DNA from: a virus
Reading direction: 5' to 3' (one strand)
IMG/VR virus record: IMGVR_UViG_3300035670_000078
Span: 1-64,000 of that record
DNA: 64,000 nucleotides
Below the pieces are notes generated by a model. The model did no database searches, had not been told where the DNA came from, and saw only the letters and a list, made by a program, of their open reading frames with translations. Of the stretch, positions 3,234 through 8,443 are shown piece by piece. Within the stretch, counting starts at the first letter, position 1, and the number at the start of each line of letters is the position of its first letter. The position numbers and the translations under genes were made by a program.

Positions 3234-3561
3234 CGGCCCCACAGTCTCTCATTGCCAGAATAAACCTCAGTGTGTGGGGGCCCCGTGTCGCCCAGTGGGT
3301 GCGGTGGCAGCGCTCCGCGCGCGTCGTTTGCTATCAGCAGCCCACGTCCCTGCTCGCACCCCATCCACCTCGACGGGCAGCATATTTCCTCCGATGCCAG
3401 CTCATTGCTACCCGACCTGCTAGGGGCTACCGCCCCTAGGACCCCGTAGGGAAGGGTGGGGATATTGGTAAGGCCGCAGGCGATAGGGAGACATTTTGCA
3501 AGGGAGGGGGGAGGGGGGAGGATGACAGGATGGTTATTTGAGAATAATGATTAAGGTGACG
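2581..3561. repeat. five fixed-spacing ~89-bp composite modules
   Basis: GGCCGCAGGCG..TTG(A/C)A..TGACAGGATGGTTATT..T(A/G)ACG at 2581, 2708, 2802, 2919, 3472. Confidence 0.9.
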
Positions 3562-3590
3562 GGGAAATAGGAAGAGGGGAGAGGGGGGAG

Positions 3591-4090
3591 GAGAGCGTCC
3601 TCGTCAGGACGCTGAAGAAGCATCGGCCCTCCTCAGTTTGATATCATCACCATCAGCCCCATAGGAGGTGGGAAAAGTAAGTGGGGGGTCGCAAGAGGTT
3701 GGTGGATACGCATCATGCCGCGAGTGTGCACTACACACGAGCGCGGGCTCGGCGTACGCGGGGACGCGCTCTCGCTTCGCGCGCGTCCCCGCCAACGAAA
3801 ATGCGACAGCGCTCCACACCTCCGTGCGGCTATCCATTTTCCTGCTCGCTGCGCTCCCAGAAAAATGGGCCGCACGGGGCGTTCCGCGCCATCGATTTTC
3901 GTTGCACCTCCCCCTTATGCGCTCGTGTCCTCATAGTGCACGCGGCAAATAGCTGCGTATCGACCCCAACCTCCAGCGACGGGGTCCCACTGAGCTGTTC
4001 CCATGGGGCTGACGGCGAGGAAGGTGGGATGAGATAGCAAACGGAGGGGGACTCGATGTTCTAGGTCAGCGTCCTGACGAGGAAGCTCTT
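3591..4090. repeat. large imperfect inverted repeat with self-complementary spacer
   Basis: arms ~3591-3746 and ~3919-4090 (GAGAGCGTCCTCGTCAGGACGCTGA / TCAGCGTCCTGACGAGGAAGCTCTT); internal stems in spacer. Confidence 0.85.
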
Positions 4091-4109
4091 TATTAAATAT
4101 TATAAAGGG

Positions 4110-4853
4110 TGATGATCGGATAGGATCAAGTGAAGAACAGACTGACTTACGCATTGAGCAAGAGGGTTTTGTCTGGAGCTAATTCCAGTTACCGGTCGAC
4201 GAAAAAGCGGAGATCGGGATATAGGGGAGGCTGAACGGTTTATTCGGATGAGAGAGTTGGGAAACTCTCGGGTTCTGGATTTATTCGTAGAGTAGGCTGA
4301 TGATCCCGTCGAGAGACGAAAAACCTCAAAGGGCTGTTGGACTGATTGCAAGTCTCGGTCACTTGGTATCGCACGGTAGGCGCAACATCCAGTTCTGGTG
4401 CGAAGGAACTGCCGCCTATGACGGGTTAAGAAGTGTGTTAGACTTCGAATGCCGTGGGTATCACTCTAGAGAATATTCTAGGGACTCGGGAAATTGAGTT
4501 CTCGAGTTGGACAAACAACAGAGAGTATGAGGATCGAAACCTAGTTCGAGATGACCAGGGGGTGTGGTAAGGTCCACCGTCTGGTCAGGGTAGGGACTGG
4601 GAGTGGGGTTTGGGTACCTCCTCGCACGCATGCAGCATCTCCTAAGGCTGCGAGCGCAGCGAGCACCCCAACATCCTGCACACTCCCCCTCCCCCTGCCC
4701 GACTTGGATCTCAGTTTACCGTTTACGGTAGACCCGGCTAATAAACAGGTGACCCTGGATAATAAGGTGGTCAACCGTGGCGTAAAACCCATGCACCGAT
4801 TATCCAGTGGCCCTGGCTTCCTCTGAAGCGAAACTGCCTCGACTGGGGCAGTA
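4110..4853 (+). ncRNA. candidate large structured non-coding RNA (~750 nt)
   Basis: no credible ORF; many stems with G-U pairs, GNRA loops and nested long-range pairings; boundaries approximate. Confidence 0.55.
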
Positions 4854-4887
4854 GGCGGGGATGGTCCCGCCCTGATGAGCCAGGAGG
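4819..4887 (+). ncRNA. type II hammerhead ribozyme
   Basis: GAAA 4830-33; stem III CTGCCTC/GGGGCAG; GTA cleavage triplet 4851-53; stem I GGCGGGG/TCCCGCC; CTGATGA 4872-78; stem II closed by G-C, C-G. Confidence 0.9.
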
Positions 4888-4892
4888 CGATA

Positions 4893-5105
4893 ATGAGAAT
4901 AACGATGCCGACGAAGTCCGATAAGTGCCCGGCCTGCGGGTCGGGGATGATTAATCGTACGCCCAGAGAGTGGGTGGGCCGGTCAGATATGATGGTCTGC
5001 CCGAAGTCCGAATCCGAAAACGAAGACGCGGGCCTCGAGGGTCTCGTGCTTCGAGAACGGGTCGGCGGAAAGGTGGTGCGCCAGGTGGTCTGGTGCATTG
5101 GATAG
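4893..5105 (+). CDS. small Zn-ribbon protein
   Basis: AGGAGG RBS; CPACG..M..RTPREW, paralogous to 8237-8443. Confidence 0.7.
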   Translation: MRITMPTKSDKCPACGSGMINRTPREWVGRSDMMVCPKSESENEDAGLEGLVLRERVGGKVVRQVVWCIG

Positions 5106-5152
5106 ACTGTACTTCCAGTCTAGTGGAACGAATAAAACAAAAGGAAAATGAC

Positions 5153-5467
5153 ATGCAATGTGAAAACTGTGGTGGTCGGATGATCGGCGATGGCTTCAGC
5201 CGTCCTAGAACCTGTGAGATGGTGTCCTGGGAGGGCCAGGGCATCGAGTCGATTATCTTCTGCGAGGAGGAGAAAGCAATGTTCGAAGTGATCACGTTCT
5301 TCAACGACATGGGCCGTACATGGCACGTCGAGGTTCAGAAGGCGGAGGGCTCCGGTAACGGTGAGCCGTCTCACTCGGTCCACCCCACCTTGGCCGCAGC
5401 TCAGGAGGCAGCACGGGACCTCTTTGCCCAATTCGGTAAGGAGGGTGACGTCCTCTTCCTCGGGTGA
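5153..5467 (+). CDS. hypothetical protein, N-terminal CxxC
   Basis: AAGGA RBS; MQCENCGG. Confidence 0.7.
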   Translation: MQCENCGGRMIGDGFSRPRTCEMVSWEGQGIESIIFCEEEKAMFEVITFFNDMGRTWHVEVQKAEGSGNGEPSHSVHPTLAAAQEAARDLFAQFGKEGDVLFLG

Positions 5468-6031: not shown

Positions 6032-6361
6032 ATGCGTCTTGTTAATCTGACACCACATCTGATCCGTGTTCAACCCGTGCTCGACGGGGAAATCCTCGAG
6101 CTGCCCAGCGAGGGCGTGGCTCGGGTCACCATCACCGACGAAATAATCGGCGACGTCGATGGTATCCCGGTCGTCGCCGGCACCCCCGGTGAGGTCACGG
6201 GTATCCCCGACCCCATTGAGGGCGTCATCTTCATCGTGTCGGCCATCGTCCTTTCGGCGCTCAATGGGAGCCGTAAGGACGTCATGGCGCCCGACACCGG
6301 GCCGACGGCTATCCGAAAGGATGGCCAAGTCTGGGCCGTGACCCGTCTTCGGGCACGCTGA
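6032..6361 (+). CDS. conserved viral hypothetical protein (NLTPH family)
   Basis: AAGGAGGT RBS; NLTPH..P.P.EGVIFIVS..R.DV.APDTG..AIR..G motif pattern. Confidence 0.8.
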   Translation: MRLVNLTPHLIRVQPVLDGEILELPSEGVARVTITDEIIGDVDGIPVVAGTPGEVTGIPDPIEGVIFIVSAIVLSALNGSRKDVMAPDTGPTAIRKDGQVWAVTRLRAR

Positions 6362-6481: not shown

Positions 6482-7057
6482 ATGCAGCACATCGAAACCG
6501 TTGTTCACAATGCCATCCGCAACATCCGCCTGGCCGTGGCCGGGCATTCAGAATGGCCGACGGGCCGGGTCGAGGGTCTGGCCAAGGAGCTGACCTATGA
6601 CAACCATTCCCCCGAGCAGGTCGTGGATATCAGGCTGGCCGTTGCGGCGGCCGTGCACGAGTTCGGCGGGTACGACAATGTGCCCGACGAGGTGTGGCGT
6701 GTGGTCGCCGGTATCGGCTGTGAAATCCACGCAGCCGAGTTCTGCGGCGATCCCGATGTGATGGGCGGCACCGCCCAGGGTGCGTTCTTCATCGTCCCGT
6801 TCCATGGTATATCCAAAGGGCACCCACTCATCAACGCCATCGAGGCGTTCGGGGGCATGACCCTCTATCATGAGTTCGAGGACACCATCATGGAAGAAGG
6901 CCCAAACAAAACCTGGGTCGATACCGTGGTGTTCGATTTAGTCGAGTTCATCGGCCGCAAGGTCGATGGCCGCCTCGTGATCGACGTCATCAATCACCGG
7001 TGGGACGAGACCACCAACAAGTTCCACCACCTGCTGCTCCTGGGAGGTGCCAAGTGA
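6482..7057 (+). CDS. hypothetical protein
   Basis: AAGGAG RBS. Confidence 0.75.
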   Translation: MQHIETVVHNAIRNIRLAVAGHSEWPTGRVEGLAKELTYDNHSPEQVVDIRLAVAAAVHEFGGYDNVPDEVWRVVAGIGCEIHAAEFCGDPDVMGGTAQGAFFIVPFHGISKGHPLINAIEAFGGMTLYHEFEDTIMEEGPNKTWVDTVVFDLVEFIGRKVDGRLVIDVINHRWDETTNKFHHLLLLGGAK

Positions 7058-8236: not shown

Positions 8237-8443
8237 ATGACAAGCAAGTGTCCCCTGTGCGGGGGCCAGATGGTCGACCGCACACCGAAAGAGTGGCGAG
8301 GACTGTCCCCAGTCATCAGCTGCATCAATGCTCCCCCCGAGGACATTGACAAGCTGTGGGACACGCTCCTCGCAGCCACCGTCAAAAAGTACAAAAAGCA
8401 GCTGATCGGAAAGGTCAGCCTGTGTGGGGGCGTGGAGAAATGA
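8237..8443 (+). CDS. small Zn-ribbon protein
   Basis: AAGGAGGT RBS; CPLCGGQMVDRTPKEW. Confidence 0.75.
   Translation: MTSKCPLCGGQMVDRTPKEWRGLSPVISCINAPPEDIDKLWDTLLAATVKKYKKQLIGKVSLCGGVEK

Follow-up and report, generated by a model that had tools for sequence, protein, structure and literature searches.

Hammerhead ribozymes of phages and prophages have previously been found to flank genes and to cleave within long transcripts (PMC3088659). An early polycistronic transcript of halovirus HF2 carries a hammerhead ahead of its first ORF, and the mapped 5′ end of this transcript falls no more than 3 nt from the cleavage site (PMC3088659); in Desulfovibrio vulgaris, three type II hammerheads situated by genes of phage origin were shown by cyPhyRNA-seq to cut in vivo (PMC8782182). 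Among engineered systems, the RiboJ hammerhead insulators normalise 5′ UTRs (PMC7536230). The biological role of the many phage hammerheads is still unsettled. Here, we describe a locus within the first 64 kb (hereafter, the window) of an IMG/VR virus record (linear, 101,255 bases, with an estimated completeness of 68%), in which a type II hammerhead motif is found directly in front of the ribosome binding site (RBS) of the first gene of an operon. Neither the kind of ribozyme, a family described in 2011, nor its position beside an RBS is new, as both occur in other phages.

Read on the + strand, 4829 to 4880 contains every element of a hammerhead core, arranged in the type II permutation. All core positions were present, i.e., C3 U4 G5 A6 N7 G8 A9, G12 A13 A14, the A15.1-U16.1 pair, an H17 that is not G, and the G10.1-C11.1 pair, and no mispair adjoined the core. 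The helix order was that of type II, with stems III and I closed by loops and stem II open. The 5′ strand of stem II (G11.2 C11.1, 4828 to 4829) pairs with C4880 and G4879, and these two (G4879-C4829 and C4880-G4828) are the only contiguous pairs of this stem. It is followed by the core nucleotides G12 A13 A14 (4830 to 4832), as read from the sequence and the Rfam alignment, and by the stem III hairpin (4833 to 4852), which runs from A4833 to U4852 with 8 bp, including A15.1-U16.1, and a GACU loop. The stem I hairpin (4854 to 4871), GGCGGG(G)/(U)CCCGCC, has six Watson-Crick pairs and a closing G·U, in total 7 bp, with the loop AUGG. Both hairpins were present in the minimum free energy (MFE) and centroid structures of all constructs that were folded. 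The core is completed, as read from the sequence, by CUGAUGA (4872 to 4878) and by G10.1 and C10.2 (4879 to 4880). From the position in the Rfam alignment, the scissile bond is predicted between A4853 (H17, triplet GUA) and G4854 (N1.1). The complete core and the predicted cut after 4853 stated in the original prediction were both recovered, and the 5′-OH and 2′,3′-cyclic phosphate ends it named follow from hammerhead chemistry. A second CUGAUGA...GAAA arrangement, at 4297 to 4325, was rejected as a hammerhead, as it had 4 extra bases between A9 and the putative stem II, would have a G at position 17, and had no Rfam match.

With permissive settings, cmscan aligned Rfam family RF02276 (Hammerhead_II) end to end (model positions 1 to 66 of 66) to 4826 to 4885 on the + strand, with a score of 35.2 bits. 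This is 1.8 bits below the gathering score of the family (37 bits), which is a curated threshold and not a biological trait, and there were 0 matches in the window at Rfam gathering thresholds. The E-value of the hammerhead match was 9.5e-6 for the local stretch. It was 0.002 when the 64 kb were compared with all 4227 families and 7.5e-7 when the 101-kb record was compared with RF02276. No other RNA-family match in the window came close to it, and it was the sole ribozyme-like match in the virus record, in which no tRNA was found. As a benchmark, 20 phage loci with well-formed type II hammerheads, selected by pattern, were scored; 13 passed the cut-off (37 to 78 bits), while 7 failed, and all 7 failures were without the consensus tail. 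Since 7 of the 20 well-formed hammerheads failed, we conclude that the cut-off penalises mainly the tail, and the 1.8-bit shortfall of our motif probably comes mainly from its non-consensus tail, its shorter stem I, and the A at position 17, and not from a broken core. In practice, the Rfam cut-off can miss well-formed phage hammerheads that do not carry the consensus tail. The E-values and the 8-bp and 7-bp stems led us to reject a chance match, and we are highly confident that the motif at 4826 to 4885 is a genuine hammerhead.

The protein encoded directly downstream of the ribozyme (P0001, 70 aa) had one relative among 5.8 billion proteins, P0003, encoded on the 1666-base metagenome contig L006. 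This contig matched positions 3513 to 5175 of the window with 96.8% identity over 1.66 kb, with 7 differences in 780 nt of non-coding sequence (4113 to 4892) compared to 26 in the next 284 nt, the adjacent coding DNA. Within the 60-nt ribozyme, a single change was found (U4876 to A, at core position 7), while the next 210 nt of coding sequence contained 19 changes. Position 7 is the variable position of the hammerhead core, where any nucleotide is tolerated. The stems were identical in L006, the sole readable relative, so that the stems display no covariation. As the ribozyme was no more conserved than the surrounding 780-nt leader, the conservation is not specific to the ribozyme.

A contig from run X5, which belongs to a different study, covered 3502 to 4888 at approximately 5% divergence and then continued into sequence rejoining the window near 5080. 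In place of 4889 to 5080, the ribozyme in X5 was directly followed by AGGAGGC-TG-ATG-AGG-TAG, an apparent deletion of nearly the whole first ORF as read from a 23-nt contig end. On the same 23 nt, this relative appears to keep the ribozyme and AGGAGG without most of the first ORF. No relative of P0001 was found in IMG/VR or the genome collection, no relative was found for the protein of 6482 to 7054, and architecture-based pattern scans for the same ribozyme with free stems gave no further homolog. Among RNA sequencing runs, none was found to contain the locus. Four distant relatives, reached through the ORF at 6032 to 6358, had no hammerhead in the fetched loci or in the whole records. The locus of a distant relative (L005:3905-4496, + strand) gave a match to RF02743 (Sernc389, an antisense sRNA of Saccharopolyspora) with 211 bits over 595 positions, which probably reflects the conserved coding region under the antisense family and not an sRNA.

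The Shine-Dalgarno (SD) sequence AGGAGG (4882 to 4887, + strand) is located 5 nt before ATG 4893. It overlaps the 3′ tail of the Rfam match, and the overlap between ribozyme and SD stated in the original prediction is therefore literally true. We surveyed how phage type II hammerheads are placed by scanning IMG/VR with a generic type II pattern, which returned at least 118 loci; we kept the 75 in which stems I and III each had 4 bp or more. In these, we looked between +3 and +45 of G10.1 for an SD-like motif together with a start codon that opens an ORF of 40 aa or longer. Among the matches listed, 56 of the 75 hammerheads (75%) had this layout, compared to 17% at random positions on the same strands. 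In this set, placement next to an RBS is typical of phage type II hammerheads. At our locus, AGGAGG begins 3 nt after G10.1, and in the survey script the offsets were 4 for the SD-like motif and 13 for the start codon; among the matches listed, start-codon offsets ranged from 14 to 38, which puts the window at the compact extreme. On the upstream side, a same-strand ORF of at least 80 aa ended within 40 nt in 54% of the surveyed hammerheads, among the matches listed, compared to 13% of the controls, and most phage hammerheads among those matches therefore fill tight gene-to-gene gaps. The ribozyme of the window instead follows a long non-coding stretch, and the ORF upstream of it is spurious. 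On three IMG/VR contigs (L039, L056, and L116), well-formed type II hammerheads were also seen in arrays, with 4 to 10 copies within a few kb. Each copy in these arrays precedes an SD-like motif and a start codon, and L116 carries ten copies with a spacing of approximately 250 to 400 nt.

With regard to activity, stem II is commonly just 2 bp in type II hammerheads. In most of them, loop I pairs with the tail to form a pseudoknot of 4 bp or more, and fast cleavage at physiological Mg2+ requires it; when it was shortened from 6 to 4 bp, the rate fell approximately 20-fold at 0.5 mM Mg2+ (PMC3088659). In the window, the loop I-tail pairing is at most 3 bp (UGG 4862 to 4864 with CCA 4880 to 4882), does not exceed chance level (p 0.14 to 0.6), and competes with C10.2-G11.2, the second stem II pair. 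The speed of cleavage is therefore uncertain, given that the usual pseudoknot is either missing or limited to 3 bp. Another tertiary contact may conceivably form, e.g., one that joins loop I to the GAA/CA internal loop in an extended form of stem II. Position H17 is A in the window and C in 74 of the 75 surveyed phage hammerheads (among the matches listed). The NUH rule permits GUA as a cleavage triplet. Judged on these sequence features, useful cleavage in vivo is likely.

The original prediction further regarded GCCAGGAGG, which contains the SD, as the downstream strand of stem II, and suggested that cleavage may gate translation by freeing the SD. Neither part was supported. The proposed strand is not continuous, as only 2 bp are contiguous, the flank pairing is at chance level, and no clear change in accessibility was predicted. 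Three registers of pairing between the upstream flank and the SD region were found by folding. CCUCU (4820 to 4824, + strand) could pair with GGAGG (4883 to 4887) as a distal extension of stem II in a fold of -32.4 kcal/mol, although this requires crossing a 3x2 internal loop (GAA/CA) and is not above chance. CCUGGCU (4812 to 4818, + strand) could form a 7-bp helix with AGCCAGG (4878 to 4884), which excludes the active core and was the centroid structure of a 111-nt construct. The fold with this alternative helix was predicted at -37.4 kcal/mol, compared to -32.4 and -32.9 kcal/mol for hammerhead-compatible folds, i.e., 4.5 to 5 kcal/mol more stable. The third register is GCUUCC/GGAGGC. However, the duplex between the 25-nt upstream flank and the tail was -11.6 kcal/mol compared to -10.1 kcal/mol for shuffled flanks (z -0.72, p 0.22), and across the 75 phage type II hammerheads, among the matches listed, the mean z was 0.05, showing that SD masking is not a general design in that set. 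Furthermore, in partition-function folds with 200 to 800 nt of leader, A4882 to A4885 were mostly unpaired before cleavage and G4886 to C4888 were still paired after it; the computed accessibility of 4882 to 4888 displayed no clear rise upon cleavage. In these models, the gating idea is possible, with support that goes no further than base composition.

The first ORF of the + strand operon (4893 to 5105) encodes P0001, a 70-aa CxxC zinc-ribbon-like protein. This gene and that of P0003 on L006 differ at 19 nucleotides but only 3 amino acids, and this pattern of substitutions indicates that the first gene is real and under purifying selection. P0001 had no match to a Pfam or PHROG family. The CUGAUGA core contains an AUG (4875 to 4877) that shares the reading frame of the gene, and the public 76-aa gene call P0004 starts there. 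In L006, these positions read AAG, and since this change (U4876A) abolishes the upstream AUG, we conclude that ATG 4893 is the real start. Many of the surveyed hammerheads, among the matches listed, likewise had an in-frame core AUG that starts an ORF of 40 aa or more. The core AUG is a general annotation pitfall, at which gene callers can start an ORF, as in the 76-aa call here. A paralog of P0001 is encoded 3.3 kb downstream (8237 to 8443, + strand), with 39% identity over 44 aa (E 2e-11). An N-terminal CPxCG...RTP(K/R)EW motif is common to the two proteins, neither of which falls into a Pfam or PHROG family; there was no hammerhead in front of the paralog. Downstream of the ribozyme, the + strand carries a series of small ORFs that includes this paralog, a SLOG-domain protein, and an SSB, and this content fits an early or replication module. 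The term "early" used for the gene in the original prediction agrees with the SSB, the SLOG domain, and the small ORFs, and is to be read as a designation from gene content alone.

Upstream of the predicted cut is a non-coding leader of approximately 745 nt (4108 to 4853, + strand), the predicted 5′ cleavage product, which would end in a 2′,3′-cyclic phosphate. A consensus scan gave a sigma-70-like promoter candidate, CTGACG-18-TATTAT (4074 to 4103, + strand; 9 of 12 matches), which would start the leader near 4110, and the block of near-perfect conservation in L006 begins at about the same position. The leader diverged from L006 by 0.9%, compared to 9% for the adjoining coding DNA. Its MFE was -287.8 kcal/mol for the + strand (z -4.5) and -234.4 kcal/mol for the - strand (z -2.25), with 20 shuffles each. 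Among the substitutions in L006, one affected a confidently paired position, turning a G-C into a G-U pair, while the other four were at positions unpaired in the MFE structure. Two freshwater metagenome runs, belonging to two further studies, contained near-identical pieces of 4205 to 4676, and no other part of the 4-kb stretch matched these runs at that level. Across separate studies, leader pieces turn up in both groundwater and freshwater metagenomes. The leader matched no Rfam family, and no homolog was detected in IMG/VR by a 25-mer pattern scan or in cultured phages by blastn. Based on these folding and conservation results, we regard the leader as a candidate large phage ncRNA or structured leader.

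Approximately 2.4 kb of upstream sequence was without a credible gene. The ORF at 4551 to 4826 (91 aa), whose stop lies at the 5′ edge of the ribozyme, was rejected as an upstream gene, because it is frameshifted in L006, has a low-complexity composition, and is not conserved in a coding-like manner. When L006 was compared with the window by blastn, an inverted repeat of approximately 60 to 68 nt with 82 to 84% identity (approximately 3592 to 3653 and 4025 to 4090) was also seen; it flanks approximately 3650 to 4030 and lies immediately before the conserved leader. G-rich runs (GGGGAGGGGGGA) were observed at 3500 to 3600.

The reading we favor, with moderate confidence, is that the type II hammerhead serves for constitutive RNA processing at the start of the phage operon. 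Transcription would start upstream, perhaps, going by the consensus, at the promoter-like element at 4074 to 4103, and would read through the conserved, structured leader of approximately 745 nt into the operon. The ribozyme would then fold and, if it follows the chemistry of its family, cut between A4853 and G4854, which would release the leader with a 2′,3′-cyclic phosphate and leave an operon mRNA with a 5′-OH and a 39-nt 5′ UTR starting with the stem I hairpin. Behind stem I, the cut mRNA would present 10 unpaired core-derived nucleotides, followed by AGGAGG, 5 nt, and AUG. The net effect would be that of a ribozyme insulator, uncoupling the RBS from bulky upstream structure and providing the mRNA with a defined, hairpin-capped end. 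Since any transcript that starts upstream of 4829 and includes the RBS of ATG 4893 must carry the whole ribozyme, cleavage would split the upstream RNA from the operon mRNA, and the separation claimed in the original prediction is supported to that extent. The decay-resistant 5′ end it also proposed is plausible, as the product would begin with the stem I hairpin, but would depend on the host and its RNases. For engineered hammerhead insulators, uncleaved mRNA has been modelled as decaying faster (PMC7536230).

Other explanations of the locus have to be weighed against constitutive processing. The motif could be a decayed or very slow hammerhead that is kept as a 5′ UTR structure, or a chance match, as could be argued from the score under the Rfam cut-off, the non-significant pseudoknot, the GUA triplet, which is unusual among the surveyed phage examples (among the matches listed), and the competing 7-bp helix. 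However, the core is intact, stems III and I have 8 and 7 bp, and the E-value for the genome is 7.5e-7, while sub-cut-off scores were also obtained for 7 of the 20 well-formed phage hammerheads and the sole substitution in L006 falls at the one tolerant core position; we consider decay or chance quite improbable. Alternatively, translation could be gated by cleavage, with the SD held by the upstream C/U-rich strand, in stem II or in the alternative helix, until the cut is made. All three registers, which bring together 4812 to 4824 and 4878 to 4888 with 7, 6, and 5 bp, cover part of AGGAGG, and all three masking strands would be on the 5′ fragment after cleavage. The weak two-molecule duplex left by the cut would then dissociate, and the first gene would be translated only after self-cleavage, a sequence of events that we rate as unlikely. 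The short start-codon offset of 13, just outside the surveyed range of 14 to 38 (among the matches listed), would suit such an arrangement, and engineered hammerhead switches that free an RBS do work in bacteria (PMC12192606). Against it are the 2 contiguous bp of stem II, the chance-level flank-to-tail pairing both here (z -0.72, p 0.22) and across the 75 hammerheads (mean z 0.05, among the matches listed), and the predicted state of the SD itself, with A4882 to A4885 mostly open before cleavage and G4886 to C4888 paired after it. In addition, X5 seems to keep the ribozyme while the first ORF is deleted.

It is also possible that the ribozyme mainly serves the RNA upstream of it, making the exact 3′ end of a functional phage RNA of approximately 745 nt, with the effect on the mRNA as a by-product. 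The leader is far closer to L006 than the adjoining coding DNA (0.9% compared to 9% divergence), its one paired substitution keeps the pair while the other four are at unpaired positions, its folding is strong and strand specific (z -4.5 compared to -2.25), the 91-aa ORF within it is frameshifted in L006, and near-identical pieces recur in freshwater runs of two other studies. On the other hand, the leader belongs to no Rfam family and had no homolog in cultured phages or IMG/VR, each z-score comes from 20 shuffles, and two full sequences offer no real covariation; the conservation could reflect a recent segment exchange or a function at the DNA level, such as promoters or an origin. We therefore hold this explanation only tentatively, and the same applies to the proposal that the hammerhead is a built-in 3′-end maker of a previously undescribed structured phage RNA at approximately 4108 to 4853. 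If this were true, a single cut would yield both a mature ncRNA ending in a cyclic phosphate and a hairpin-capped operon mRNA. The ribozyme alone is an ordinary family member, and the locus would be of greater interest only if the leader RNA were shown to have a function.

The locus is a clean test case for the role of phage hammerheads, as its one ribozyme is bordered by a long leader and, on the other side, by an RBS 3 nt from the core, and leader removal, mRNA stability, and translation could each be measured with one series of constructs.

Compared to the type II hammerheads of phages and prophages (RF02276; Perreault et al. 2011, PMC3088659), the ribozyme of the window has the same catalytic core, the same operon site upstream of a gene, and the same expected product chemistry. 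It differs in that the consensus AGCC(A) tail pairing with loop I is absent, leaving at most 3 bp (UGG:CCA), in the A instead of C at H17, and in the length of stem I (7 bp compared to 9). Furthermore, it is a single copy in 101 kb and not one of a cluster, and it follows a non-coding leader of approximately 745 nt, whereas 54% of the surveyed hammerheads (among the matches listed) had an ORF ending within 40 nt upstream. With the haloviruses HF1 and HF2, it would share the position of the hammerhead at the head of a multi-gene transcript from a genome region with early or replication functions, and for HF2 the mRNA 5′ end has been mapped to the cut. Theirs is an archaeal virus system with a variant core and a helicase as the first ORF, while in the window the core is canonical, the first ORF encodes a 70-aa zinc-ribbon-like protein, and the transcript is predicted. 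The D. vulgaris hammerheads (PMC8782182) are similar in their type II architecture near genes of phage origin, but they are located at chromosomal, prophage-like loci and their activity has been measured, while that of the ribozyme described here is predicted from its sequence. Finally, like RiboJ and the RBS-releasing switches (PMC7536230, PMC12192606), the ribozyme is placed just before an RBS, where it would remove upstream RNA and leave a defined 5′ UTR. Those devices are type III ribozymes derived from sTRSV or Schistosoma, to which a hairpin was added or in which the RBS is paired by design, whereas RBS pairing in the window is at chance level, and the likeness to RiboJ is one of functional analogy and not of family membership.
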